Positions 29,744 to 63,111 of a stretch of 64,000 nucleotides of DNA are shown here, piece by piece (the stretch's first letter is position 1; every line of letters starts with the position of its first letter). The notes beneath the pieces were generated by a model, which did not search any database, was not told the DNA's origin, and saw nothing but the letters and a program-made list of their open reading frames with translations. The position numbers and the translations under genes were made by a program. The stretch is from Candidatus Multivoradales bacterium (GTDB lineage: Bacteria; Acidobacteriota; Thermoanaerobaculia; Multivoradales; Multivoraceae): the NCBI GenBank assembly GCA_965223325.1, contig CBDCWI010000002.1, forward strand, positions 3,520,001 through 3,584,000, given 5' to 3'.

Positions 29744-31174
29744 ATGGTCAGTGCCGCGAACCCCCCGTCGTCGCCGGAGACGCGCGACTGGTACAGCATC
29801 AGCTTCGATTCCCTGCGGGTCGTACTCGGGGCGTTGGTGCTGCTCGTTTGCCTCGGCCTGGTGGCTTGGGGGGGGATCTCATTCCAGGGCCACCGCCAGG
29901 AACAGCGTGCTGCCGAGCTGATCGCCAATGCGCGCAGCCTGGTGGGTCAGTTGCGCAACAACCAGGAGGTCGAGCGCCATCAGGAGTCGTTCGATCGCGG
30001 GGCGTCGCTGCTCGCCGAAGCGGAGGCCTCTCTCGAGAGCGGTGACTACAGTCGGGCGACCGATGTCGGCGAAGAGAGCTTCCAGTTGCTCTCCGACATT
30101 CTGGACCGGCTGGTCAATGACGGTGAAGGTGGAATCGCCTGGTTCGTCAACGTCGAGGGCGACGTTCAGTACCGCCGTGGCGAGTCAGGACGCTGGATTC
30201 GGGCAGTCGCGCGCGACTTCGTCTATGACGGCTACTACGTGCGGTCGGCTTCGAACGCCTCGGCGGAGCTCTACTTCCATTACGACGAGACTCGATTCAC
30301 CATCCGTCCGGGCACCTTCTTCAAGGTCTCCAGCCGCGAGGCCCTGGAACAAGGCAATCTCGGTTTCATGGAGTATGGCTACGTCGACCTCGACACCTCG
30401 CAGACCTCGAGTGGCGTGTCGACGCGCTACTCCGAGATCACCGTGGCGAGCAACACTCGCGCTTCGGTCGACGTCAACAAGAGCGGTGAGTCGCGCATTG
30501 TGGTCGAGACCGGCGAGGCGGCGGTTCGCTCGGGCGACGGTACGACCAGACGGGTTGGCGAACGCCAACAGCTGGAAGGCCGCGGCTCGAGTCTTGGCGA
30601 CGTCAAGACGCTGCCCGGCGCGCCAGCTCTGGCGGCGCCACCGGACAACTTCAATATCGATATCGACGTGACGCGGCGGGTGACCCTGGAGTGGCAGCCG
30701 GCCCCCGATGCGGTGACCTATGCCTTGCAGGTCTCTCGCAGCCGGCTCTTCGGCGAGTCGGTGATTGACGCTCAGAATCGTCCGGAGACCACCGCCACCC
30801 TCGGGCTGCGTGCGATAGGCAGTTACGTCTGGAGGGTTGCGGCGATCGACGCAAAAGGGGCGCGAGGCCCGTGGAGCGAACCGCGCAAGTTCCGCGTCGA
30901 GTCGTTTCGCGGCCTGGCACTCGATCGCGACGACACGCCGCCGCCGCTCGACGTCAACGTGCTGATGAACGGTCGCATCGCCATCCTGCGCGGCGAGACT
31001 GAACCCGGGGCACGCGTCGAACTCGACGGACGACCGGTGCGCGTTGGCGCGGACGGCAGCATTCAGACCTCCGAGACCCTTGCCGGTTCCGGCCGCACCA
31101 TCATCCGCCTCCGGGCCATCGACCAGGCGGGGAACGCGCAAGAGGTCAAGAAGATCGTATTCCTGCCCGAGTAG
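29744..31174 (+). CDS. Membrane-anchored protein with FecR-like domain and FN3/Ig-like C-terminal domains
   Basis: One TM helix, a helical linker, VEGDVQYRR..W..DGYYVRSASNASAEL (FecR-like), LEWQP..Y..YVWRVAA (FN3), GETEPGARV. Confidence 0.75.
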   Translation: MVSAANPPSSPETRDWYSISFDSLRVVLGALVLLVCLGLVAWGGISFQGHRQEQRAAELIANARSLVGQLRNNQEVERHQESFDRGASLLAEAEASLESGDYSRATDVGEESFQLLSDILDRLVNDGEGGIAWFVNVEGDVQYRRGESGRWIRAVARDFVYDGYYVRSASNASAELYFHYDETRFTIRPGTFFKVSSREALEQGNLGFMEYGYVDLDTSQTSSGVSTRYSEITVASNTRASVDVNKSGESRIVVETGEAAVRSGDGTTRRVGERQQLEGRGSSLGDVKTLPGAPALAAPPDNFNIDIDVTRRVTLEWQPAPDAVTYALQVSRSRLFGESVIDAQNRPETTATLGLRAIGSYVWRVAAIDAKGARGPWSEPRKFRVESFRGLALDRDDTPPPLDVNVLMNGRIAILRGETEPGARVELDGRPVRVGADGSIQTSETLAGSGRTIIRLRAIDQAGNAQEVKKIVFLPE

Positions 31175-36853: not shown

Positions 36854-38371
36854 ATGAGCGTCACCAGAAAAATGCTCGTCGAGAGCGACCCGCATCAAAC
36901 CCGGGTCGCAGTACTCGAGAACGATGCGCTCACCGAGATCTACGTCGAGCGCAAACACGATCTCGGTGTCGTCGGGAACATCTACAAGGGGCGCGTCAAT
37001 CGCGTGCTGCCGGGAATGCAGGCGGCCTTCGTCGACATCGGTCTCGAGCGCGACGCCTTTCTCTACGTTTCCGATGTTGGCGGACAAGCCGAGACCGACG
37101 ACACGGTTCGCATCTCGCTCGCCGAGCTCAACCTCGAGCGTGACGAAGGTAGCAAGACTCCGAGCGGCGAAGTGTCAATCGCCGATCTTCTGCGTGAAGG
37201 CCAGGAGGTGCTCGTTCAGGTGACCAAAGACGCCTTGCCCAACAAGGGCGCACGCGTCACAACACATTTGACCTTGCCAAGCCGGCACCTGGTGCTGCTG
37301 CCCTCGGTCACCCACCTTGGTATTTCGCGGCGCATCGAAGGTGAAGACGAGCGCCATCGCCTGCACACCATGTTGGATGCCTTGCGGCGGCCTGGCGAAG
37401 GGCTGATCGTGCGCACGGTGGCCGAGGGTCAGGGCGAGGAGGAACTCGGGCGCGATCTCACCTACCTTCATCGGCTCTGGGAGCGGGTTCATGAGAGCGC
37501 CGCGAAGGTAGGCCCACCGACGCTCATTCATCGCGAGCTGGATATCGCCCTGCGGGTCGTCCGCGACGAGTTCAACTCGGACTTCAGCGTTTTGTGGGTC
37601 GACGGCGAAGACGCGTATGAGCGCATCGTGGACTTCCTTGACCTGGTCCAGCCGTCGCTGGTCGGCCGGGTCAAGCTCGACCATCAGGAGTCGGGCCTGT
37701 TCGACCGCTTCGGAGTCGAGTCCGAGATCGAAAGTGCACTACAAAGCAAGGTGTGGCTCAAGTCGGGCGGACACCTATTCATCGATCAAACCGAAGCGCT
37801 GGTTTCGATTGACGTGAATACCGGGCGTTTCGTTGGCAAGCGCGACCTCGAAGATACCGTCCTGCGTACCAACCTCGAAGCCGTAGGCGAGATCGTTCGC
37901 CAGATTCGCCTGCGCGACCTTTCCGGTATTCTGATCATCGACTTCATCGACATGACCGAGGTCCAGCATCGCGAAGAAGTTCACCGCGCCCTCGAGCAAG
38001 AGCTGACACGCGACCGCGCCAAGAGCAAGCTCAGCAGCATTTCGGAGTTCGGGCTGGTCCAGGTGACGCGAAAGCGCAGTCACTCCAACCTCGAGCGCCT
38101 GATGACGCAGCCGTGCCCCTACTGTCGAGGGCGGGGGCGCATCAAGGCGCTCGGCACGATCTGCCTGGCGCTGCGGCGAGAGGTCCTCGAACGCGCCAGC
38201 CGCGGCCGGGTACGCGAAATCCTGGTGCGGGTGCACCCGCAGGTCGCCCAGGCTCTCCAGACCGAGGAGCGCGCCATTCTCGACGAGTTCGACCAGGCCT
38301 TTGCGTCGACGATTCTCCTGCAGTCAGATCCATCGCTCCACCACGAGAAGTTCAGCGTCACCGACGCCTAA
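36854..38371 (+). CDS. rng: Ribonuclease G (Rne/Rng family)
   Basis: GNIYKGRV..VLPGMQAAFVDIG, IDVNTG, IRLRDLSGILIIDFIDM, CPYCRG. Confidence 0.93.
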   Translation: MSVTRKMLVESDPHQTRVAVLENDALTEIYVERKHDLGVVGNIYKGRVNRVLPGMQAAFVDIGLERDAFLYVSDVGGQAETDDTVRISLAELNLERDEGSKTPSGEVSIADLLREGQEVLVQVTKDALPNKGARVTTHLTLPSRHLVLLPSVTHLGISRRIEGEDERHRLHTMLDALRRPGEGLIVRTVAEGQGEEELGRDLTYLHRLWERVHESAAKVGPPTLIHRELDIALRVVRDEFNSDFSVLWVDGEDAYERIVDFLDLVQPSLVGRVKLDHQESGLFDRFGVESEIESALQSKVWLKSGGHLFIDQTEALVSIDVNTGRFVGKRDLEDTVLRTNLEAVGEIVRQIRLRDLSGILIIDFIDMTEVQHREEVHRALEQELTRDRAKSKLSSISEFGLVQVTRKRSHSNLERLMTQPCPYCRGRGRIKALGTICLALRREVLERASRGRVREILVRVHPQVAQALQTEERAILDEFDQAFASTILLQSDPSLHHEKFSVTDA

Positions 38372-38437: not shown

Positions 38438-40705
38438 ATGCAACTCAACCTCGACCAGCCGCCGGTTCAAGTCGAGGTCGCGGAGTCGCTCGCTGCCCTG
38501 GCCGCCGAGGAACACCTGAAGGCTCACCTGCCGGTGGTTCTCGACCCCGAGTCGACTTCTGAAACCCTTCATTGGGGGCGCAACTGGCTCTACGCCGCCG
38601 AGCTCGAGGTCGAGGGCAGCGAACCGATTCCGGTGGTCAGCAAGCTCTTTCGGCACCAGACCCTCAAGTCTCGCTTGAGGCGCCGCATGCGAGGCAGCAA
38701 GGCGGCGCGCTCCTACCGGGCTGCCGCTGCGGTCGAGGCGGCGGGCGTTCGAACGCCGGAGCCGTTGCTCTATGCCGACTCGTTCGAACTCGAGGGGCCG
38801 TCGTGGTTCGTTTGCCGGCGCCTCGAAGAGGCGCTCGAGGTGCGCTACGTCTTGCGGGCCCTGAACGCCGGTACCGCCGCCTTTGACTTTCCGAGCGTCA
38901 GCACCCCCGCCTTGTTGAAGGCGATGGGTGCCCTCGCCGCCCGTCTGCACGAACATCAGATCTGGCACCGCGATCTCACCAGCGGCAATGTTCTGATCTG
39001 GCCCCCTCCTCCGGCCGAGGGCCCGGTGGTTGACGACTTCAGTGGCCGTCTCTTTCTTTTGGATCTCAATCGCGCGCGCCTCGAACGACCGGTGTCGCGC
39101 AACGAGCGCATGCGCGAGCTGGCACGCATGCCGGTCCACAACGAGGCCGACCAGGAGATTTTCCTGGCGGGCTACTACGGCGAACGGGAGGTGCCGGCAC
39201 TGGATCGTTTCCTCTACCGGTGCCATCACCAGGGCTTCCTGCTGAAGAACCGTTCGAAGAAGAGTGTGCGTGGCTTCTTCCGGCGCCTGGCCGACATGCT
39301 CCTACCGCGGCGCAAGCCGCACGTGCACATCCCGCCTTCGGAGGAGGGCACCGCAGTGCGCGATCGCATCGTCTGGGATCGGCTCTCAGACCAGCCTCAT
39401 CAGCACGCCTCGAAGCTCGACAAGCTGCGCGTTCGCGCCCGGGACGCGCCGGGTCACCTACACATGCTTGGCCTGGCGGCCGGGCTGCTGGCACGCAGCA
39501 GGTCGCGCGCCAGGGAGCTGACCAAAGCCGCCTTTCAAGTGCCGATCGAGTTCCCTCTGCCAGGGATCGCGCTACGGCCGTGGCCGAAGGCACCCGAGGC
39601 GTTGCTTGCCGAAGTCGAAGCGCTGGGAGTGCAAAGAGTCCTGCTGCGACTTCATGCCTGGGAACCCGAGGGGCGAGGCGACGAAGAAGCGTTGGCCAAA
39701 GCACTCAACGAGCGCGGGATCGAGGTCGACTTTGCCGTCCCCCAGAACCGCGACCTGGTGCGCGATCCCGCCGCCTGGAGAAGAGAACTCGAAGACATTG
39801 CCGAGCGCTTCCTTCCCCTCGGGCAGCACTTCCAGGTTGGTCAGGCCGTCAACCGGTCGAAATGGGGGGTCTGGCGCGCACGGGAGTTTGTCGACCTCTA
39901 CTCTGCGGCGCGCGAAGTGCTGCGCGCCTCGGCGGCTGCCAGCGAGCGGGAGGTCAGGGTTCTCGGCCCGGCGGTGATCGATTTCGAGCCCCACGCGACG
40001 GCCGGGTATCTAGGTCGTCGCGCCGAAGGGTTCGAGTTCGATGTGGTGTCACACCTGCTCTACGTCGACCGCCGCGGTGCGCCCGAGAATCGCCAGCTGG
40101 GTCAGGGCACGGTAGGTAAGCTGGCCTGGATGCGGGCCTTGGCCGAGAAGTCGCCGAACTGTTCCTCCGGCCGCAGCTGGGTGACCGAGGTCAACTGGCC
40201 GCTACAGGAGGGGCCGCACTCGCCGGCCGGCAAGGACGTTGCGGTCTCGGAAGAGCGCCAGGCCGACTACCTGGCGCGCTATTTCCTGATGGCGCTCGGC
40301 TCGGGTCTGGCGGAGCGGGTGTATTGGTGGCAACTGATCGCGCGCGGTTACGGCCTGATTGCGCCGGATCCCAAGGACCCCACCAATCTTCGTCGCCGGG
40401 CCTCGTTCGACGCCCTCGCGTGGCTGGCGCGCGAGATGTCAGGCCGCGTCGTCCTGGGGCGCCTTCGCACCACCGCCGACATCTGGTTGCTGCGATTTGC
40501 CCCGCGGGCATGCGAAGACGATCAGCGCGAGGTGCTGGTGGGATGGTCGGCGAGCGATGCGCCCCTCGATGTCAGCCTGCCCGAGGACTACAGGGGTGAG
40601 ATCGCTAGCGCCCGTGACATTTTCGGGCGCGGGGTCGATCGGCGAGGTCGCTCCGCCCGTCTACGTGCGACTCCGATGGTTTTCCGTGTCGAACGCTCGG
40701 AATAG
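38438..40705 (+). CDS. Fusion of a Kdo/WaaP/InaA-like sugar kinase and a clan GH-A-like TIM-barrel domain
   Basis: N-terminal SKAARS, TPEPL, HRDLTSGNVL, LLDLNR; C-terminal GPAVIDFE, SHLLYVD, WVTEVNW, QADYLARY, RVYWW. Confidence 0.75.
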   Translation: MQLNLDQPPVQVEVAESLAALAAEEHLKAHLPVVLDPESTSETLHWGRNWLYAAELEVEGSEPIPVVSKLFRHQTLKSRLRRRMRGSKAARSYRAAAAVEAAGVRTPEPLLYADSFELEGPSWFVCRRLEEALEVRYVLRALNAGTAAFDFPSVSTPALLKAMGALAARLHEHQIWHRDLTSGNVLIWPPPPAEGPVVDDFSGRLFLLDLNRARLERPVSRNERMRELARMPVHNEADQEIFLAGYYGEREVPALDRFLYRCHHQGFLLKNRSKKSVRGFFRRLADMLLPRRKPHVHIPPSEEGTAVRDRIVWDRLSDQPHQHASKLDKLRVRARDAPGHLHMLGLAAGLLARSRSRARELTKAAFQVPIEFPLPGIALRPWPKAPEALLAEVEALGVQRVLLRLHAWEPEGRGDEEALAKALNERGIEVDFAVPQNRDLVRDPAAWRRELEDIAERFLPLGQHFQVGQAVNRSKWGVWRAREFVDLYSAAREVLRASAAASEREVRVLGPAVIDFEPHATAGYLGRRAEGFEFDVVSHLLYVDRRGAPENRQLGQGTVGKLAWMRALAEKSPNCSSGRSWVTEVNWPLQEGPHSPAGKDVAVSEERQADYLARYFLMALGSGLAERVYWWQLIARGYGLIAPDPKDPTNLRRRASFDALAWLAREMSGRVVLGRLRTTADIWLLRFAPRACEDDQREVLVGWSASDAPLDVSLPEDYRGEIASARDIFGRGVDRRGRSARLRATPMVFRVERSE

Positions 40706-40717
40706 ACTGCAGGTGCG

Positions 40718-41008
40718 ATGAAAACCCTGCGTGTGACCTGCCCTGACTGTGGTTGCGACGTCGAGATCGACGCTCAGACCGGCGCCGTCGTCGCCCACCG
40801 CGCGACCGAAGCTGCGGAGAAGCCCGACTTCGACGAGTTGTTGGCCAACCTCGATAAGCAAAAGGCGCGCACCGAGAGCCTCTTCGAGCAGGAGAAAAAG
40901 GCGCATCAGGACCGCGAACGGCTGCTCGAAGAGAAGTTCAAGGCGGCCAAGAAGCGCGCCGACGAGGCACCCGACGACGAGCCGCTGCGACCCTGGGACC
41001 TGGATTGA
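40718..41008 (+). CDS. Small conserved hypothetical protein with N-terminal CxxC zinc-ribbon-like motif and coiled coil
   Basis: VTCPDCG..EIDAQTG, charged helix, PWDLD terminus; stop overlaps the wzm start. Confidence 0.75.
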   Translation: MKTLRVTCPDCGCDVEIDAQTGAVVAHRATEAAEKPDFDELLANLDKQKARTESLFEQEKKAHQDRERLLEEKFKAAKKRADEAPDDEPLRPWDLD

Positions 41009-41790
41009 ACGCGCTGGTCCGCCACCGTGGCCTGCTTGCCACGCTGGTGGCGCGCGAGCTCAAGGCGCGGTACCGCGGGAGCTTTTTGGGCTTTGCCTGG
41101 TCGCTGGTCAACCCGCTCCTTCTGCTCGCGGTGTACTCGTTCGTCTTTGGCGCGGTGCTCGGGGCGCGCATGAAGGGTGTCGACCCCTATGCGGTGTTTC
41201 TGGTCTGTGGTCTCTTTCCTTGGCTCTGGGTGTCGAGCTCGCTTCTCGACGGAGTGGTCAGCCTGTCGGCGAACGCTGCGCTGATTCGCAAGGCCGTGTT
41301 CCCGGTCCGCATTCTGCCGGTCGTTTCAGTGCTCTCGAACCTGGTGCACTTCGGCCTGGCGCTTCCGGTCGTCGTTGTGGCGATCTTGGTGGCGCGCTAC
41401 TACGGCTATGAACGCGGCGACCTCTGGGCGCTTCTGCTGCCGGCTGTGGTCATCCTGCAGCTTCTGTTGTTGAGCGGCATGGCGATGGCGCTGGCAGCCC
41501 TCAACGTGCACTTCAAGGACACGCGCGACCTGACCTCGAATTTCTTGACGTTGCTCTTCTTCATGGCGCCGATCCTCTACCCGTTGGCGGCCATCCCGGA
41601 GCGCTTCCAGCTTCTGATCCGCCTCAATCCGTTCACCCCCTTCACTCTCGCCTACCACGACATCTTCTTCTACGGTCGCGCACCGGAACCCCGCTTGTGG
41701 GTCGAAATGGCGGTCTACGGTCTCTTGGCCTGGCTTCTGGGGAGCCTCTTGTTCTCGCGCCTCGAACCAAGCCTGGCGGAGGCGGTCTGA
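41005..41790 (+). CDS. wzm: Polysaccharide ABC exporter permease (Wzm-like)
   Basis: RELKARYRGSFLGFAWSLVNPL, LIRKAVFP, PILYP, LNPF. Confidence 0.9.
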   Translation: MNALVRHRGLLATLVARELKARYRGSFLGFAWSLVNPLLLLAVYSFVFGAVLGARMKGVDPYAVFLVCGLFPWLWVSSSLLDGVVSLSANAALIRKAVFPVRILPVVSVLSNLVHFGLALPVVVVAILVARYYGYERGDLWALLLPAVVILQLLLLSGMAMALAALNVHFKDTRDLTSNFLTLLFFMAPILYPLAAIPERFQLLIRLNPFTPFTLAYHDIFFYGRAPEPRLWVEMAVYGLLAWLLGSLLFSRLEPSLAEAV

Positions 41791-41792
41791 GC

Positions 41793-43094
41793 ATGACGGC
41801 CAACCAGAAGGGCGAACGCTCGGTGCGCGTCGCGGGTGTCAGCAAGCGCTACCGACGGGTCGCTGCAGGTTACAAGTTCCGCACCTTGAAGAGTGCCCTG
41901 CTCGGTGGTGCCTTGACCGGCGGCCTGCGCGACGAGGACACCATCGAAGCACTGCGCGCGGTCGACTTCGAGGTCGGTCGCGGCGAAGCGTTCGGTGTCA
42001 TCGGGGGCAACGGCTCGGGTAAGTCGACGCTCCTCAAGTTGATCTCTGGCCTCTTGCCGCCCACCGCAGGCACGATTGATGTCAGGGGTCGCCTGGCGGC
42101 GATGATCGAGCTCGGCGCGGGCTTTCACCCGGAGATCTCAGGCCGCGAGAACGTCTTCATCAACGGTTCGGTTCTCGGCCTCACGCGTCGCCAGGTGCGG
42201 GAGCGCTACGACCGCATCGTCGAGTTCTCGGGGCTCGAAGACTTCATGGAAGAGCCGGTCAAGAACTACTCCTCTGGCATGTACGTGCGCCTGGGCTTCG
42301 CGGTGGCCATTCATACCGATCCCGACGTCTTGCTGGTCGACGAAGTGCTCTCGGTGGGCGACGAAGCCTTCGGTCGCAAGTGCTTGGCGCGGCTCGAGGA
42401 GCACCTGGCCGACGGTGGAACGCTTCTGGTCGTCAGCCACTCGCTCGACCTCGTCGAGTCTCTCTGCGACCGTGTTCTGTGGCTCGATCGACCAGGCAGC
42501 GGTGCGGAGGGCTCGAGCATGAGAATGCTCGGCGAGCCGCGACGCGTCATCGACGCCTACCGCCAGGCGGTTTCGACCGGGGTTGGTGAACTGCATGCAC
42601 GGCTGGACGCAGAAGCGGCCACCAGCCATGAACGGTGGGGTTCCGAGGAGGCGCACATCACAGCTGCTCGCATTCTCGCCGGACCCGAAGACGACCAGGG
42701 CGAACGACACGACCTCGAGTCGGGCGAAGCCGTCACGTTCGAGTTCGATGTCGAAACGCGTCAACCTCTTGCTGATTTCGTCTTCGGGATCGCGGTGTCT
42801 ACTCCACGCGGGGCCCTGTGCTGGGGCACCAACACGGACCTTGCGGGCTTCGAACCCGAGCGCTTCGAAGGCAGGGCGACGGTGCGCATCGGCGTTCCGG
42901 CACTCCGTCTGGCGCCCGGCGAGTATCACGTCGACCTGGCGGTGCACGCCAGGAACGGAACGCCGTACGACTATTGGAAACGCTGCCTGACGTTCGACGT
43001 TCGAGCACAGCGAGACTCGGCAGGCGTCTATCAGCCGCGACACCGTTGGAGCGTTGCGGGTGCCATCGAGTGGAAGAAGCCCCCCGGCGACTGA
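41793..43094 (+). CDS. wzt: Polysaccharide ABC exporter ATPase with C-terminal Wzt carbohydrate-binding domain
   Basis: GGNGSGKST, GAGFHPEISGREN, YSSGM, VDEVLSVGD, then RWGS..FGIAV..GTNT..LAPGEY (Wzt_C). Confidence 0.9.
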   Translation: MTANQKGERSVRVAGVSKRYRRVAAGYKFRTLKSALLGGALTGGLRDEDTIEALRAVDFEVGRGEAFGVIGGNGSGKSTLLKLISGLLPPTAGTIDVRGRLAAMIELGAGFHPEISGRENVFINGSVLGLTRRQVRERYDRIVEFSGLEDFMEEPVKNYSSGMYVRLGFAVAIHTDPDVLLVDEVLSVGDEAFGRKCLARLEEHLADGGTLLVVSHSLDLVESLCDRVLWLDRPGSGAEGSSMRMLGEPRRVIDAYRQAVSTGVGELHARLDAEAATSHERWGSEEAHITAARILAGPEDDQGERHDLESGEAVTFEFDVETRQPLADFVFGIAVSTPRGALCWGTNTDLAGFEPERFEGRATVRIGVPALRLAPGEYHVDLAVHARNGTPYDYWKRCLTFDVRAQRDSAGVYQPRHRWSVAGAIEWKKPPGD

Positions 43095-43376: not shown

Positions 43377-43670
43377 ATGGCAGATTCACCAGAGAGACAA
43401 CCCAACGCTCAAGAAATCAACGTCAAAATCGAAGATAGCGAGCTCAAGGGGCGCTACTCGAACCTCCTGCGCATAACGCATACGCATGAAGAGTTCTTCC
43501 TCGACTTCATCAACCTAGTGCCACCGCAGGGCATCGTGACGGCGCGCATCGTCACCAGCCCGGGGCACCTGAAACGCATCATCGGTGCTCTGCAGCACAA
43601 CCTGACTCGCTACGAAACGGCCCACGGGCCGATCACCGAGGCACCCGATCCAACCGGACAGGTTCACTAG
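43377..43670 (+). CDS. DUF3467-like small protein
   Basis: GRYSNLLRITHTHEEFFLDF, ARIVTSPGHLKR, NLTRYE..HGPI. Confidence 0.82.
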   Translation: MADSPERQPNAQEINVKIEDSELKGRYSNLLRITHTHEEFFLDFINLVPPQGIVTARIVTSPGHLKRIIGALQHNLTRYETAHGPITEAPDPTGQVH

Positions 43671-56734: not shown

Positions 56735-58834
56735 ATGGTTCAGATGGTCTCGAGTCGCCTCGAGAGGGCTCTCGATTTGATCGCACTCGGGTTCAGCGAC
56801 AACGGCATCGCCTTGGTCGCTGCGACAGCCCTCCTCCTTCTTGCTTCGCCTCCGGTCTTGTCGCAGCCGCAATGTGCGTCACAGAAGAACATGACCTGCG
56901 ATCTACCCGCGCCGATCGGTCTGGCGGTTGCATCTTCGAACCCCACCGCGGTGTCGCTCAGCTGGCAGCATGACTCTCCTGAAGAGGAGGGCTTTCGGGC
57001 CTGCCGCAAAGCCGGAGCGGCTGGTCCCTGGGTGAGGGTTGACGATGACGACCTCGTTGCCGATTCGACATCGCATGTTGATGTGGTGCCGGTCTGTGGT
57101 GGCACGTATGCCTATAGGGTTTGGGCGTACTCGTTCGTCGATGGACTCCTCTGTGAGTCAGAGGAATCTAACGAGGCTGCTGTCGAGGTCGTCTGTGTCG
57201 ATTGCGTGGGTGACACCGACACGGGGGACTCGGATGCGGATGGGGTCTGCGACGACCAGGATGTCTGCCTTGGGATGGACTCGTTGGGAGACGAGGATCA
57301 CGACGGGTTCTGTGAAGACCGCGACCGCTGTCCGGGTGCTGACGACTCGATCGATCTCAATGATGATGGTCTCCCGGATGCGTGCGAGCGCCCAGTTCCG
57401 GGTGCGCTTCTTTCGCCCGAAAGCCCTGGGCAGAACGGCCAGACCCGCCTCGAGAACTTTGGGACGCTCCTAGACGCTCTCTTTGAGGGGCCTTGTGTGA
57501 CCCGTGAGGTTCCGATCGACGGGCTCGCCCACCAGCTTCCACCCTGGTTCGGTTCGTCCACCATCTGCACTGAAGAAGAGCTCAAAGCCGTTGATGGGAT
57601 TCCAGCGCAACCATCCTTTTCAGACTACCTGGTGGTTAGTGACGAGCTGTCAGAACTGGCCGTGGTGACTGCTGTGGGGACTTCGGAGTCGAGGTTCTTA
57701 GCCATTGATCGCACGATTGAAAAGTTGATCGCGGGCTCGACGCTCGGTGCTCTACCCTGCTGGCTTGCGAGCGTGGAAGGCGCGTCGCCTTCGTGTGCAA
57801 ACGAGTCCACAGCGACCTCAGCTTCGGTCGAGTGCCTCTTGGGTGATTCGGCGTCGGACGCTTCCGCTCGCCTTGGACTCTCGTACTACCTGGCTGCCGC
57901 GAATCAGCACTTTGCGGGTCGGGCCGACTACCGATCCAAGGCGACGGCGCTTGCGTATGCTCACCTGGAAAAGGAATATTCGTCGCTGGAGGGTGACGAA
58001 TGTCCGCTGGGGCCGTGGTCTGGAGAGAGGATCTGTCATTGGGCCGGCGGAGGCGCCAACACGGCGAGTGGACCCATCGCAGACCTGGTGATGTGGGTGG
58101 GCTACTACCCCGACATCATCAGGTTCTTGCTGGCGGCCTACAACGTGACTCGCGACAGTCAGTTTCTGATTCGTGCCCAGGAAGTCACGGAACAGTTCCT
58201 GTTGGCGAGTGAGTTCGACGGCTCCTCGTTGACGTTCGCGCGTGTCAACTTCAGATGGGACTTGACCGGCAGCCCAGCGCCGTTCAATGAGCCAAACGAC
58301 GGCGTCGAAGACTACTACTGGGAACAGGATCGGGCCTGGGATGCGGCGGACGCACCGCGAGCCCTCTGGATGGGTGACGTACCGCGGGCCTTCCGGCTGG
58401 CCGGTGCGGGCGACTCGACAGCCGGAGTTGTCACCGCCCTGGAGAGCTGGATCGCCAAGGTACAGGCCGCGACGGAGGCTGTCGTTGGGGACGAGCCAGC
58501 GTCCTGCATCCAGTGGAGCCACAGTGGGATTCCAGACCCTGGAAACTGCGGGGCCGGCTACTACGAGAACGGATTGGGCAGCGGGCTCTATCGGTCTCTC
58601 AACACAGCAGGCTTCAGACCCCGCATCGACGCCGCTCTCGAGGAGTTTGATTGGGAGGGTGAACCCCCCGGCGGATGGTTCGGTGCGGATTGCATGGGGA
58701 TCTATCGGAGCGTGAGGCCGATCAACGCGACTGCCAGTTCTATTGGGCTGACTGCGGCGGCGATGGGCGCATCCCTCTTTCAGGACGGCTTCGAGTCTGT
58801 AGGCACTGCGAGGTGGGATCGAACCGTCGACTGA
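56735..58834 (+). CDS. Secreted modular protein: FN3, thrombospondin-3-like Ca-binding repeats, divergent GH8-like domain and FxDGFES tail
   Basis: GGAG RBS at 56725; hydrophobic signal; VSLSWQ..YAYRVWA; DSDADGVCD, DEDHDGFCE, DLNDDGLPDAC; DSASDA and DAPR motifs; LFQDGFES. Confidence 0.75.
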   Translation: MVQMVSSRLERALDLIALGFSDNGIALVAATALLLLASPPVLSQPQCASQKNMTCDLPAPIGLAVASSNPTAVSLSWQHDSPEEEGFRACRKAGAAGPWVRVDDDDLVADSTSHVDVVPVCGGTYAYRVWAYSFVDGLLCESEESNEAAVEVVCVDCVGDTDTGDSDADGVCDDQDVCLGMDSLGDEDHDGFCEDRDRCPGADDSIDLNDDGLPDACERPVPGALLSPESPGQNGQTRLENFGTLLDALFEGPCVTREVPIDGLAHQLPPWFGSSTICTEEELKAVDGIPAQPSFSDYLVVSDELSELAVVTAVGTSESRFLAIDRTIEKLIAGSTLGALPCWLASVEGASPSCANESTATSASVECLLGDSASDASARLGLSYYLAAANQHFAGRADYRSKATALAYAHLEKEYSSLEGDECPLGPWSGERICHWAGGGANTASGPIADLVMWVGYYPDIIRFLLAAYNVTRDSQFLIRAQEVTEQFLLASEFDGSSLTFARVNFRWDLTGSPAPFNEPNDGVEDYYWEQDRAWDAADAPRALWMGDVPRAFRLAGAGDSTAGVVTALESWIAKVQAATEAVVGDEPASCIQWSHSGIPDPGNCGAGYYENGLGSGLYRSLNTAGFRPRIDAALEEFDWEGEPPGGWFGADCMGIYRSVRPINATASSIGLTAAAMGASLFQDGFESVGTARWDRTVD

Positions 58835-58971
58835 GCCTGCGGGTTGCCCGTGCGGAAAAGGCATCGCGCGCAAGCATGGCTCCGGTCCGAAGAAGGGCGA
58901 TGGCCCGCTTCCGTTCGGAAGCCGCTCCGATGCCGGCCGTTCGAAGGTGGAGACAGGATTGGGAGAGCACG

Positions 58972-61900
58972 ATGATGTGGACCAGGGGATCTTTCTATTG
59001 GGCTTCGCAGGTACGAGCGCTGCTCGTCAGCATTGTTGGCATTGGGGTGCTGTTCGCAGGACTACCCGACGCCTCGCACGGGAGCGTTAGGCCGTTGAGC
59101 CATACAACACCCAACAGCGAGAGCGATGGATCGGACGAGACCTGCGTCAATCCTGAGGCCCTCACCCAGCTAGAGCGCGCCCTTCCGAGACTTGCCCTCG
59201 AGAAGGAGCACTGGGTCTCTGAACTCTCGAGTCTCGCCGAAGTCCGAGCGCTCTTGCGCTCGCAGGGCGCAGCGCCGGGCAAGGAGGCCGCCAGCGAGGC
59301 TGGCGCGTCCTATGAAGCCTCCGCGGATGAGATTGACCAGGTCTTTGAGTACCTCGAGAACGTTGGATCACCGACAACACGTCACCAGGTGGAGATTTCA
59401 TCCAGTACTTGGTCGGTCGAGCTCGACGTCGATCAGCGGGCATATCGTGCCGTACAGGTGGCGGCGATTCTCATTCCAGCCACGGTCGGAGCGATCGAAG
59501 GTCTCGTGAGCTACTACTGGGACCACAAGGTGCATGACGAGCCGTTCACTTGCGTTGGCGCGAGCAAGGCGACGATCGGCGGCGCGATTCTCGGAGCAGC
59601 GGCGCCGGCGTTCCAGGTGGCAGGGTATGCGCTGAGACTCAAGTACCTCAACGAGATCGGATCGAAGGCGGGGATGTTCCTCAACTCTGTTCCGGATGAT
59701 TTGGCTGCCGACGTTGTGCTTCAGATGTTCAACAGGACTCTTGGCTTCGACGTCAAAGTTCCGGAATTGGCCGAGGGCATCTCGACTCTCAACGAGTTCT
59801 TTGGCGCTCTAAATGATCTTCTTGTGGACGCGGTAACCGCCGGTCCTGGACTTCGAGGATTGATTGTTCTCTGGTGTTCGGCCGGTGGTGTACTCGCCGA
59901 CCTGGTAGCGGGGCGGTCGGTGAGCTTCAGGACCTTCGTGAGAGACGAGTTCATTCCGAACTTTGAAGAGGCGTTTGGGGTCCAGCTTCTGGAAATGAGT
60001 ATCGGACTCGACGCTGTCGTGGCAGCGGAAGAAGCGGAACCTGCAGAGGTTCGCTACGTTTCCGGGGCCCTCAAGACAAGGAACCAGGCGGGCACTCACG
60101 AGAAGGTGCTGTTCAATCCGAACGAAGTGGCCTCGTGGAGCACCGACGCCTACGTGTCTACCCCGGGGGCCTACAGGGCCGATGTGATTCTTTTTCGCGA
60201 TGGCGAAGACAGTCTCGGTGTTTCAGCATCCGATACTGCGTCCGTTGGCGGCGAGGGATCGATCAACTTCTCGGGTACGTTCAACACCGCGGACCTCTAC
60301 GAGGGGCAGGGAGCCGGCGAAGGATTGCATCACTTCCAGGTCAGCCTCGTGAACACAACCCAGGGTTGGGCTGAGTGGCTTCGAGATGGCCGAGGAGACA
60401 TCGCTCGCTTCCCGATCGAGATGCGGAACAACAGCCGGCCGTCCGTCACCATCGAGGTTCTCGGCATGGAGCTGAATCTGCCAGTGGTCACCTTGATCAT
60501 CGTTGATCCCGATGGGGAGCGGCCACAACAGGTGTCTTTTGAGATAGACGGTTCAGTGGAGGATTGGACTGGCGCCTTGCCCGCCGTTGGCGCGAGCGGC
60601 GTCAACTGGGCCGAGGGCTACAGCCTCCAGTTGCCGCCCAGGCATCTCTCGACAGGTATCTACTCGATTCAAGCCGCGGTTTCTGACAGCGGCGATACGG
60701 TGACGTCTGGGCCACCGCAGGAGCTTCGAGTGGGTGGGTTCGCGCAGCTCGATCTCCCGGCGGTCGTCCTTTCGGAAGTCGGGCGGCGTCATCAGCTCGC
60801 GGTGCGCCTCCGTGACAATGTCGGCGGGTTGCCGAATCGCCCGGTGTATCTCTACTCAGCTCAGGAGGGTCGCTTCTATGGAGAGACCGGCGAGAGTACC
60901 CGCAGAGCAGTCACCGATTTGAATGGCTGGGCGACCTTCGAATACAAGCCGTTGGAAGAAGGTCAACATCGACTAGAGGTCCACTCTCCCGCTGCAGTCC
61001 CGGACGTGGTCGTTCGGACGTCGAATGGCGTGTTGCCGGCGTGTTCTCCCCCCGAAGGTTTGCGCCTACTCAGTCCCAGTGACCAGAAGGCGAATGTCGG
61101 TGAAGAAGTCGAAATCGAGTGGAGAACGGCCGACGGTGCGTCGAGCTACGACATCTTTCTCGGTCCAACGAATCCACCGCCTTTCCGCACCAGTGTCTCG
61201 GCGCAAGAGGTGTTCGGCCAGGAAATGATCGTGGGAAACCTGACACCTGGAACCCAGTACTTCTGGAAGGTCGTCGCCCGTGCGGCGTGTAGTGGCGCCG
61301 AGCGAGCTGAGAGCGCGGTGCGCTCGTTCTTTACGCTGGGAAGCCCGGGAGGGGTCGAGCTAGTCAAACCACTGGACGGTGCTAGCGACCTGACAACGGC
61401 TCTCGTACTTGACTGGGAAAACGTCACCACGCCGGGGTCCACGACGTACTGGCTCTTCCTCGGTGAGACACCGGCACCTCCGTTCTTCGCTGACACAGAA
61501 GGGCGCTCGCAGGTACTGGTTGAGCTTGAAGCAAACCGGACGTACTTCTGGCGGGTCGAGGCTGTGGCGAACTTCGACCCTTCGCTAACTGCAACGAGTG
61601 CCACCTGGCAGTTCGAGACGGGCGGCGCCGCTTCGCAGACAGTCGAGCTTTCAGCGACCATGGATGCGGGGCTTCGCGGTGGTGCCTTTAGTAACAGGAA
61701 CTATGGAGGTGGTATCGGTGGACCTGCAGAAGAGTGGTTCTTTGGTGTGGGAAGTGGGGACGCGTTGTTCCAGGACCTCGGGAAAGAACCCATTCGTGGA
61801 GTCGTTCAATTCGATCTGTCGTCCGTTCCGGCCGGCGTGAATATCACTCATGCAAGCCTCCGTTTGATTTCGGCGGAATGGAACAATCCGATCAGTACCT

Positions 61901-63111
61901 CCACGGAGATGTTCTTTGACCCGTTCCTTTCGCCCTGGTCCGAAGAGTCGATTACCTGGTCTTCCCGCCCGCAGGTTTCCCTGGCAGACCGGGTCGAAGG
62001 GATCTTTCCGCCCAGCGGCTGGGCTCCCCTCGACACGAACGTTACGCCGCTCGTCCAGAAATGGGCCAGCGGCGCCCTTGCGAACAACGGGTTGTTGTTC
62101 TCAGTGCCCGACTGGGAAAGCACAACCAACCGCTGGGCGAGTTTCACCCAGAAGGAACGCGATGCCTCCGGGCTCTGGGCCGCGACTCTTGCCGTCACTT
62201 ACACGCTTCCGTGTTCGGCGCCGCCAGCGCCCCAGCTTGTCGGCCCGCTCGATGGCGCCACGAACGTGGAGGGTTCCGTGACGCTCGAGTGGGACGGCGA
62301 AGGAGCATCCGACTTTCTTGTGTACGTTGGAACCTCTCCGGGGCCAACCCAGAGCTCGCTCGTGAATGGCAGCTCTCTCGATATCGAGGTCGATCCGCTG
62401 ACTACCTATCATTGGCGGGTGGAGGCTTTGTCGGAGTGTGATGCCTCCTTGTCCTCGTCGTCGCCGGAACGTAGCTTTTCTACGGGAGGATGCGTTGCGC
62501 CTGACGAGCCGCTCCTGACCAGCCCGAGTCCCGATGCCCAGGGGGTTGCAAGGAGGCCCGTCCTTCAGTGGGAGCCAGCGGCCAACGCCAGCGAGTACGA
62601 TGTGCGCCTCGGCACTTCGAATCCGCCCACGCAGGTGGTGGCGACCTCAGTGACAACAAGCCAGATCATTCCCGCACTCCAGCCGGCCAATACCTACTAC
62701 TGGCAGGTTACGGCGCGGACGACGTGCGGTGATCAGCCGGAGCGCTCGACGCCTGTCCGAGCCTTCGTCACAGGTACCCCGCCGAGACTCGAGCAGGTAT
62801 CGCGACGCCTCCTCGTTTTCGGCAGTTCTGTCGAGCTTGGTGCGCACATTGCGGTTGAGGGAGGCCTTCAGCCTTTCGAATACGCGTGGACGATCGTCTC
62901 GGGCGCGGAGAATGCCTTCTTGGAGGCGGCCGGCTCGCACAACCCGATTCTGTGGCCTTCGAGGGACGGCGTCTTCGAGGTGCGAGTGCTCACGACAGAT
63001 GCGAATGGCTTCATCTCTAACACCGGTCAGATCGAGGTTCTAGTGCCAATGTTTGGTGACGATTTCGAGTCGGCTGACACAGATAGGTGGAGTTCTTCGA
63101 AGGGTGGGTAG
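58972..63111 (+). CDS. Large secreted multidomain protein (helical N-domain, Ig-like domains, four FN3-like repeats, DNRLRE-like domain, FxDDFES tail)
   Basis: RBS GGGAGAG; signal peptide; four P.L..P..G..W..Y..LG..YxWxV repeats; RGVVQFDLSSVP..ITHASLRL..WSEESITW..NNG; MFGDDFES. Confidence 0.8.
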   Translation: MMWTRGSFYWASQVRALLVSIVGIGVLFAGLPDASHGSVRPLSHTTPNSESDGSDETCVNPEALTQLERALPRLALEKEHWVSELSSLAEVRALLRSQGAAPGKEAASEAGASYEASADEIDQVFEYLENVGSPTTRHQVEISSSTWSVELDVDQRAYRAVQVAAILIPATVGAIEGLVSYYWDHKVHDEPFTCVGASKATIGGAILGAAAPAFQVAGYALRLKYLNEIGSKAGMFLNSVPDDLAADVVLQMFNRTLGFDVKVPELAEGISTLNEFFGALNDLLVDAVTAGPGLRGLIVLWCSAGGVLADLVAGRSVSFRTFVRDEFIPNFEEAFGVQLLEMSIGLDAVVAAEEAEPAEVRYVSGALKTRNQAGTHEKVLFNPNEVASWSTDAYVSTPGAYRADVILFRDGEDSLGVSASDTASVGGEGSINFSGTFNTADLYEGQGAGEGLHHFQVSLVNTTQGWAEWLRDGRGDIARFPIEMRNNSRPSVTIEVLGMELNLPVVTLIIVDPDGERPQQVSFEIDGSVEDWTGALPAVGASGVNWAEGYSLQLPPRHLSTGIYSIQAAVSDSGDTVTSGPPQELRVGGFAQLDLPAVVLSEVGRRHQLAVRLRDNVGGLPNRPVYLYSAQEGRFYGETGESTRRAVTDLNGWATFEYKPLEEGQHRLEVHSPAAVPDVVVRTSNGVLPACSPPEGLRLLSPSDQKANVGEEVEIEWRTADGASSYDIFLGPTNPPPFRTSVSAQEVFGQEMIVGNLTPGTQYFWKVVARAACSGAERAESAVRSFFTLGSPGGVELVKPLDGASDLTTALVLDWENVTTPGSTTYWLFLGETPAPPFFADTEGRSQVLVELEANRTYFWRVEAVANFDPSLTATSATWQFETGGAASQTVELSATMDAGLRGGAFSNRNYGGGIGGPAEEWFFGVGSGDALFQDLGKEPIRGVVQFDLSSVPAGVNITHASLRLISAEWNNPISTSTEMFFDPFLSPWSEESITWSSRPQVSLADRVEGIFPPSGWAPLDTNVTPLVQKWASGALANNGLLFSVPDWESTTNRWASFTQKERDASGLWAATLAVTYTLPCSAPPAPQLVGPLDGATNVEGSVTLEWDGEGASDFLVYVGTSPGPTQSSLVNGSSLDIEVDPLTTYHWRVEALSECDASLSSSSPERSFSTGGCVAPDEPLLTSPSPDAQGVARRPVLQWEPAANASEYDVRLGTSNPPTQVVATSVTTSQIIPALQPANTYYWQVTARTTCGDQPERSTPVRAFVTGTPPRLEQVSRRLLVFGSSVELGAHIAVEGGLQPFEYAWTIVSGAENAFLEAAGSHNPILWPSRDGVFEVRVLTTDANGFISNTGQIEVLVPMFGDDFESADTDRWSSSKGG

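Follow-up and report, generated by a model that had tools for sequence, protein, structure and literature searches.

We analysed a 64,000-nucleotide (nt) stretch of the genome of Candidatus Multivoradales bacterium (Acidobacteriota, Thermoanaerobaculia; contig CBDCWI010000002.1, positions 3,520,001 to 3,584,000), hereafter the window, and within it a gene whose product, P0001, joins a lipopolysaccharide (LPS)-type sugar kinase to a glycosidase-shaped domain. A sequence-only reading of the window had proposed this fusion, with a glycosidase-like half that kept its nucleophile and lacked the acid/base glutamate. The architecture was confirmed, with the nucleophile in place and no acid catalyst. 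The gene and the parts of its product, numbered by window position and by residue of P0001, were laid out as follows (aa, amino acids; GH, glycoside hydrolase; Kdo, 3-deoxy-D-manno-octulosonate):

38438..40705, + strand: kinase-barrel fusion gene encoding P0001, from the open reading frame (ORF) list and its translation; 755 aa; single copy in the genome
38438..39301, + strand: residues 1-288, kinase domain of the Kdo/WaaP family ending in a 35-residue helix
39350..39532, + strand: residues 305-365, extending the barrel module at its N-terminal side; conserved W..DQPH motif in a beta-hairpin, then two helices
39551..40441, + strand: predicted clan GH-A (beta/alpha)8 barrel, nearest GH39/PslG (residues 372-668), by Foldseek, VIA-align and hhalign
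39830..39874, + strand: strand beta4 and its loop, FQVGQAVNRSKWGVW (residues 465-479), with Ala470 at the acid/base position
39965..40096, + strand: beta5 and beta6 loops with the near-invariant D515, E517, Y542, D544, R545, R546 and E550 (counts over 150 representatives)
40178..40231, + strand: strand beta7 and its loop, WVTEVNWPLQEGPHSPAG, with Glu584 (40187-40189) as the retained nucleophile
40442..40702, + strand: C-terminal beta-sandwich (residues 669-755; strands 670-753 in the model)

Within the kinase, Lys69 of strand beta3 was encoded at 38642-38644, the HRD..N motif at 38966-38989 and the DLN motif at 39056-39070, and the trailing helix spanned residues 254-288 of the whole-protein AlphaFold model (predicted local distance difference test, pLDDT, 93.3; predicted template modelling score, pTM, 0.86). 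The W..DQPH extension coincided with the true N-terminus of standalone barrel proteins, which start about 10 residues before DQPH.

A divergent WaaP-type kinase joined to a GH39-derived barrel

The kinase half carried the HRD..GN (residues 177-184) and DLN (residues 207-211) motifs from which a Kdo/WaaP-type kinase had been proposed, and Pfam PF06293 (Kdo/WaaP) matched residues 73-240 well above its cut-off (37.9 bits against 21.3; E 1.7e-9). When the family profile was compared with the Protein Data Bank (PDB), the nearest solved structure was Pseudomonas aeruginosa WaaP (6dfl, E 1.6e-10), described in an excerpt of PMC6147952 as an LPS heptose kinase resembling eukaryotic kinases. K69, D179, N184 and D209, aligned to WaaP 6dfl, were invariant among 60 full-length homologues, providing the beta3 lysine, the catalytic-loop aspartate and asparagine and the metal-binding aspartate, and in these catalytic residues the kinase active site is intact. 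The protein resembles WaaP and the other PF06293 kinases (KdkA, WaaY and InaA) in its above-cut-off Pfam score and in this conserved Lys/Asp/Asn/Asp set. It differs from WaaP in that the residue aligned to the helix-C glutamate is a conserved serine, and in the attached glycosidase-like module of about 450 residues, which no characterised WaaP carries. None of the NCBIfam equivalog cut-offs was reached by the kinase, with scores of 18.7 against 170 for RfaP (NF011703) and 22.9 against 142 for KdkA (NF002475, the Kdo kinase model, a weak match at E 3.5e-5 and far under its cut-off), and a value far under the cut-off for Bud32. These scores mark it as a divergent PF06293 member and not as a recognisable orthologue. 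In a scan of its 6.7-Mb genome it was the top PF06293 match (40.9 bits); the eleven other matches scored at most 27.9 bits and lay inside ORFs of about 660-1100 aa, and by these scores the fusion kinase is the only solid member of the family there.

The C-terminal half had no sequence match in Pfam, NCBIfam or PDB searches, and a Pfam scan of P0001 at E up to 1 returned no family besides Kdo and no GH model, PF01229 included. Its fold had been read from motifs as a clan GH-A-like barrel, and AlphaFold modelling followed by structure searches bore this out. The C-terminal part modelled alone (residues 300-755) reached a pLDDT of 88 and a pTM of 0.91, and its top Foldseek matches in the PDB were PslG structures (4zn2, 5bx9 and 9g17; E around 1e-17, template modelling scores 0.63-0.70), followed by GH30, GH39, GH79 and GH51 enzymes. 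An independent VIA-align search against representative structures placed a Bacteroides GH39 enzyme first (5jvk_A; Z 31.3, root-mean-square deviation 2.8 over 346 residues) and PslG second (4zn2_A; Z 28.1), ahead of GH1, GH30, GH42, GH164, GH5, GH79 and GH51 structures at Z 20-25; the myrosinase 1e4m was also among the matches (Z 21.8). Since both methods converged on GH39/PslG, the assignment of the modelled barrel to clan GH-A, nearest GH39, is solid. The Foldseek and VIA-align alignments extended to model residue 453-456, and the C-terminal beta-sandwich resembled that of PslG and of GH39/GH30 enzymes. Homology to GH39 was visible by profile-profile comparison only, where hhalign gave a probability of 94.6 (E 7e-8) against one canonical GH39 sequence and 98.0 (E 1.8e-13) against 13. 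The C-terminal domain descends from retaining glycosidases of the GH39/PslG type.

A canonical relative in the same genome allowed direct comparison. This secreted GH39/PslG-like glycosidase (G000:C2:884159-885364, minus strand; locus L082), encoded outside the window, matched GH39 xylosidases and PslG by sequence and had a secretion-type N-terminus and intact acid/base (N-E-P) and nucleophile motifs, FWEVWNEPN and WLTETGW. The fusion protein read FQVGQAVN (residues 465-472) and WVTEVNW (residues 581-587) at the corresponding places, as the sequence-only reading had noted. Like PslG and GH39 enzymes it combines a barrel with a C-terminal beta-sandwich and keeps the beta7 Glu, the beta6 Tyr, the beta2 Arg and the beta8 Trp. 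It differs from them in having neither Glu nor Asp at the acid/base position (Ala470), preceded by Gln, His or Asn, in an invariant N-R-x-K-W-G loop, in an extra conserved N-terminal hairpin and helices, and in lacking a signal peptide where the canonical GH39 has a secretion-type N-terminus. In PslG the catalytic pair is E165/E276, and the E165Q/E276Q variant is reported as inactive in an excerpt of bioRxiv 10.1101/032714.

A consistent pattern emerged when residues were counted in an alignment of 150 representatives (50%-identity clusters) to the family hidden Markov model (HMM). The nucleophile E584 was kept in 148/149, whereas position 470 was Ala in 131, Thr in 10 and Val, Gly, Cys or Ser in 5, and never Asp or Glu (0/146), as expected from the earlier claim that the nucleophile had been retained and the canonical acid/base Glu lost. 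The correspondence came from an hhalign comparison of a barrel-only alignment of 39 sequences with the genome's canonical GH39, which laid Q469-A470 on the N-E pair and E584 on the nucleophile Glu; the helices on both sides paired with top confidence, and the stretch that joins them was ungapped and equally long in both proteins. We preferred this register for two reasons: these helices line up with no difference in length, and residues 464-467 form strand beta4 in the whole-protein model. A second hhalign register, obtained against 13 canonical sequences (98%), put KWGVW on the canonical strand at the price of two compensating 11-residue gaps; we rejected it as implausible and regard it as the pull of conserved tryptophans. 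Neither register puts a Glu at the acid/base position, and positions 467-479 are almost without Asp or Glu whichever is used; residues 468-480 had a fixed length, with no insertions.

The loop that replaces the acid/base motif was itself strongly conserved (N472 147/147, R473 147/147, K475 146/147 and W476 147/147), as were the other residues of a retaining-type centre (Y542 148/149, R404 139/139, W630 136/147 and W631 115/147). On neighbouring loops, D515 (149/149), E517 (140/149, with 8 further Asp) and D544 (147/149) are candidate substitutes for the acid/base residue, and the beta5/beta6 loop residues, among which R545 was kept in 145, R546 in 135 and E550 in 133, form a candidate anion-binding site. 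By this pattern the barrel appears as a remodelled active site rich in basic residues, not as a decayed pseudoenzyme. The beta4 loop (residues 471-480) had a pLDDT of 67 in the model of the barrel alone, compared with 94 in the full-length model, which used a deeper alignment; the beta6 and beta7 loops stayed lower (79 and 67), and these low-scoring stretches may be mobile active-site loops.

Clan GH-A has other members without the acid/base Glu, namely the plant myrosinases of GH1, and engineered acid/base mutants are used as glycoligases. The barrel shares with both a retained nucleophile and a lost acid/base residue, which implies good leaving groups or anionic co-substrates. It differs from myrosinases in being GH39-like rather than GH1, in its Ala plus Arg/Lys loop, and in being bacterial, probably cytoplasmic and fused to a kinase.

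A cytoplasmic location, suggested by the sequence-only reading, is probable. No signal peptide was visible at the acidic N-terminus of the fusion protein and no membrane helix was predicted in it, the best 19-residue Kyte-Doolittle window reaching 0.99. We considered a topology with the kinase inside and the barrel outside the membrane, prompted by a hydrophobic helix after DQPH in the standalone barrel protein P0234, and rejected it: 19-residue hydropathy exceeded 1.6 in 0/117 fused and 1/123 standalone proteins, and across these 240 homologues the N-terminal extension of the barrel module was not a membrane helix. Most probably, then, the fusion protein is either soluble or peripherally attached at the cytoplasmic face.

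Distribution and gene neighbourhoods of the kinase-barrel module

A collection of proteins clustered at 90% identity held 1727 matches to the barrel. Among the barrel matches listed, 117/120 carried PF06293, and the names given were Thermoanaerobaculia or Acidobacteriota; the proteins themselves were called 'lipopolysaccharide kinase InaA family protein', 'Bud32' or 'hypothetical'. In contigs from one genome per species, 400/440 candidate stretches encoded a relative, and the best 80 of the 400 were labelled as classes of Acidobacteriota, apart from one labelled Methylomirabilota and one labelled only 'uncultured bacterium'. An even sample of 301 genomes across the phylum, whose tallies take in G049 and G024 (flagged unpublished, and used for no other claim), had the module in 23, comprising all those sampled from the window's order and scattered others. 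A full HMMER scan with the most divergent barrel returned 553 clusters (50% identity) at E<=1e-3, of which 332 reached 1e-10 and 173 reached 1e-30; in the top 150 of these 553, 70 representatives were at least 600 aa long and 50 were of 380-480 aa. The family is thus large and mostly acidobacterial, and with this many relatives the gene lies far outside what chance would give. Lineages of the barrel family were only 28-35% identical. One of ten distant representatives was named candidate division CSSED10-310 in a cluster look-up, and the ESM Atlas listed 'putative glycosyl hydrolase' clusters of Campylobacterota (score 0.98), a lead only.

A kinase match stood directly before the barrel match in 79/80 loci, the remaining locus having no upstream DNA. 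In small Aminicenantes-type genomes the barrel was a separate protein of about 423-448 aa; a separate kinase gene (273-276 aa) abutted or overlapped the barrel gene in five Aminicenantes-type loci, and a sixth locus was fused. That the two are fused in some lineages and adjacent in others strongly indicates that kinase and barrel act together. Fused or adjacent, the pair was found beside LPS genes in four lineages.

In the window itself, the genes around the fusion, all on the same strand, were:

36854..38371, + strand: rng (RNase G), by Pfam; 66 nt upstream of the fusion gene and last gene of an mreB-mreC-mreD-pbp2-rodA-rng block
40718..41008, + strand: 96-aa ORF, zinc-ribbon-like at its start (CPDCGC) and charged in its tail; separated from the fusion gene by 12 nt, its stop overlapping the wzm start
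41005-41790, + strand: wzm (ABC-2 permease), by Pfam
41697-43094, + strand: ORF of wzt (ABC ATPase with a Wzt_C carbohydrate-binding domain), by Pfam
43377-43670, + strand: 97-aa ORF (orf43377) after wzt, with no Pfam match and 70-73% identity in 5/5 family genomes

Five arrangements could be distinguished among the related loci; shadow-ORF rows in high-GC loci (e.g. L115 and L077) were left out of the neighbour counts. The first, seen in most Thermoanaerobaculia and Holophagae-type loci, ran surA/ppiD (minus strand), unknown ORF, mreB, mreC, pbp2, rodA, rng and fusion. The most conserved neighbour was rng, which lay directly upstream on the same strand in 59/67 related loci, a count that takes in L073, where the matches overlap by a few bases, and mreB, mreC, pbp2, rodA and rng were all present in 42/56 loci with enough upstream DNA. 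The downstream side was variable, with a convergent M16 peptidase gene in 23/57 loci and unrelated genes in others. We read this first arrangement as inherited gene order and not as function, because the synteny vanishes outside that clade. In the window a 476-aa ORF (29744-31174, + strand) with no Pfam match lies between surA/ppiD and mreB, and it is kept there in most related loci.

In the second arrangement, that of the window's family, the same block and the fusion were followed by wzm, wzt with Wzt_C and the 97-aa ORF, an order found in 5/5 other family genomes, across which the fusion protein itself was only 45-51% identical. The adjacency to wzm and wzt put forward by the sequence-only reading thus stands for the window's family and is not supported as a general rule, both genes being present within 8 kb downstream in only 6/57 wider loci (those with at least 4 kb downstream) and neither being seen within about 5.5 kb in ten distant loci. 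The 97-aa ORF was also found after wzt in several wider loci, and the exporter operon may have in it a third component. In 10 related loci, homologues of the 96-aa ORF (47-59% identity) were neighbours of the fusion or of wzm but always ran on the opposite strand, and a local inversion of about 300 bp seems to have occurred around it in the window; none of the five other family genomes showed it.

The third arrangement comprised seven fused loci without rng upstream. In five of the seven, lepA, a hemN-like gene and a T2SSE-type ATPase gene (absent in L053 and L058) preceded the fusion in this order. A DUF374 gene lay directly downstream of the fusion in L027, L053, L070, L077 and L049; DUF374 is LpxJ, a late acyltransferase of lipid A, according to an excerpt of PMC6148475.

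The fourth arrangement, in the Aminicenantes-type loci L106-L111, was a tight operon of a glycosyltransferase family 4 (GT4) gene, kinase, barrel and an S-adenosylmethionine (SAM)-dependent methyltransferase, divergent from a GT9 (heptosyltransferase family) gene in 3/6 loci; L109 and L110 additionally carried a Wzy_C/WaaL-type ligase. No homologue of this methyltransferase or of this GT4 was found in the window's genome (tblastn at 1e-6). Near the split operon, L106, L107, L108, L110 and L111 all encoded an SH3_3 protein of about 400 aa; L106, L107 and L110 had a DUF1573/immunoglobulin (Ig)-like protein, and some of the five had dprA and a nucleoside transporter. In the fifth arrangement, from one genus (L112-L114), GT9 and ligase genes preceded the barrel, and L112 had LpxK and a lipid A acyltransferase a few kb away. 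Arrangements two to five all point to LPS (three to its lipid A-core end, one to export of the O-chain), and the wzm-wzt, LpxJ, GT9, ligase and GT4 neighbours in several lineages uphold the link to LPS loci that had been suggested from the window alone. Enterobacterial and Pseudomonas core clusters carry the gene order waaG-waaP, which the distant relatives recall, with their kinase gene after a GT4 gene and near GT9 and ligase genes.

A possible two-activity enzyme of LPS assembly

Our leading reading, to which we give a little under half of our confidence, is that the gene encodes a soluble, cytoplasm-facing enzyme of LPS assembly with two activities, most likely acting on the lipid A-Kdo/heptose inner core of a lipid-linked intermediate. 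The kinase would phosphorylate a core sugar of that intermediate. The barrel may bind an anionic sugar, either phosphorylated or carboxylated such as Kdo, in the basic pocket formed by R473, K475, R545 and R546, and would cleave off or transfer a glycosyl residue by way of an intermediate in which the sugar is covalently bound to the enzyme. As a classical general acid is lacking, the first step would need an activated leaving group, e.g. phosphate, or help from the substrate, with D515, E517 or D544 as a possible stand-in; without a general base, the second step would favour anionic acceptors. Activated leaving groups and anionic acceptors are known behaviour of retaining glycosidases that lack the acid/base residue. 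The barrel thus probably handles an anionic or activated sugar and is probably not an ordinary hydrolase.

Several observations weigh against this two-activity reading and keep it tentative. The beta4 register is not settled, the two hhalign runs differing. Most loci have non-LPS neighbours, including rng upstream in 59/67 and the M16 peptidase downstream in 23/57, and in the window's genome distances of 350 kb to 1.4 Mb separate the GT9 and ligase genes from the fusion. GT9, GT4 and ligase genes beside the kinase fit a core cluster, yet GT4 enzymes also build O-chains. Finally, one genus (G027, G043 and G145) has the barrel, but its PF06293 matches are only weak and partial and fall within long ORFs. 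This genus shows that the barrel is active in its own right and does not strictly need a WaaP-type kinase.

Alternatively, the fusion might be a terminator or capping enzyme of O-antigen chains in an ABC-transporter pathway, as the sequence-only reading proposed; we consider this less likely, though a serious rival, and the window's own neighbourhood suggests it. The kinase would then phosphorylate the non-reducing end of an O-chain linked to undecaprenyl diphosphate, the barrel would bind, trim or add the terminal residue, and the Wzt domain would read this cap before export. In Escherichia coli O9a, WbdD is such a terminator, a kinase and methyltransferase whose product is read by the carbohydrate-binding domain of Wzt. 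The likeness lies in a kinase, here probably cytoplasmic, encoded beside wzm and wzt with Wzt_C in the window, in 5/5 family genomes and in 6/57 wider loci, and in the SAM methyltransferase that follows the barrel in Aminicenantes-type loci and recalls the kinase and methyltransferase pair of WbdD. Wzt_C was moreover present in 23/23 genomes with the module compared with 178/278 others of the 301-genome sample, a comparison among related genomes and not an independent statistic. However, Wzt_C is common in the phylum anyway (201/301 genomes), and the linkage to wzm/wzt is confined to one family and a few other genomes, with 51/57 wider loci lacking both within 8 kb downstream and none seen near the distant ones. 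The protein also differs from WbdD in having a WaaP-type kinase and a glycosidase-like barrel, which WbdD lacks, and no methyltransferase domain by Pfam; no homologue of the Aminicenantes methyltransferase was detected in the genome (tblastn at 1e-6). The kinase was closest to the core kinase WaaP, and no WbdD chain was among the best 60 PDB profile matches.

The barrel might instead be a catalytically dead glycan-binding or scaffold domain that serves only to bring the kinase into place on the LPS it modifies. Throughout the family the canonical acid/base Glu is missing, no Pfam glycosidase model matched at E up to 1, and the pTM of the whole-protein model is consistent with a rigid joining of the barrel to the kinase. 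Conservation of the nucleophile Glu, Tyr542, Arg404 and Trp630/631, together with about 15 further polar loop residues, at only 28-35% identity makes this improbable, because a mere binder would not need those residues. The occurrence of the barrel as a gene of its own, in one genus without a WaaP-type kinase, likewise speaks against a role that consists in positioning the kinase.

We attach similarly low probability to an ordinary retaining hydrolase with a relocated acid/base residue (D515, E517 or D544), which would trim a cytoplasmic glycan, for example removing an outer Kdo before the freed hydroxyl is phosphorylated. All three residues are near-invariant and lie at the catalytic face of the barrel, the presence of LpxJ, LpxK and a lipid A acyltransferase in the neighbourhood suggests the Kdo-lipid A stage, and the weak match to the Kdo kinase model would fit. 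Precedent speaks against it on two counts, as we know of no clan GH-A family that places the acid/base residue off beta4 and the Kdo hydrolases known to us have a different fold.

More speculative still, kinase and barrel might form a pair in which the phosphate installed by the kinase becomes either a sugar donor's leaving group or an anionic acceptor on the LPS core, and the acid-less barrel takes up the sugar covalently at Glu584 before passing it on, in the manner of a glycoligase. Maltokinase and GlgE follow an analogous logic in alpha-glucan synthesis. If this long shot were true, it would mean glycosyl transfer in LPS assembly without a nucleotide-sugar glycosyltransferase, producing e.g. 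a glycosyl-phosphate substituent.

A role in peptidoglycan synthesis or the rod complex, which the position after mreBCD-pbp2-rodA-rng and the short gap to rng might suggest, is very improbable, since this synteny is confined to Thermoanaerobaculia and Holophagae-type genomes, seven fused loci and all ten distant loci have no mre or rng gene near, rng encodes an RNase so that its linkage to mre is not functional evidence, and LPS is where both the kinase family and the remaining contexts lead.

Full-text literature searches, with subscription journals and supplements outside their coverage, returned no paper on the kinase-barrel fusion or its family. Both folds were already known; the novelty lies in a family derived from GH39 whose catalytic loop is altered, which is probably cytoplasmic and which, in LPS loci, has a WaaP-type kinase as its obligate partner. 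The chemistry of the LPS core and O-chain of Acidobacteria, a dominant soil phylum, is almost unknown, and the module is a conserved and unannotated part of it. If the two-activity reading is right, the barrel would represent a new CAZy-type family of anion-assisted or phosphate-dependent glycosidases or transferases and a natural template for glycoligase engineering. The module also allows a test of whether phosphorylation of the LPS inner core is physically coupled to a second tailoring step.

Further downstream in the window, a 1478-aa ORF (58675-63111, + strand) had weak fibronectin type III, CBM96 and Rha78A-like Ig matches, and its product is probably a large secreted protein, carbohydrate-active or adhesin-like.

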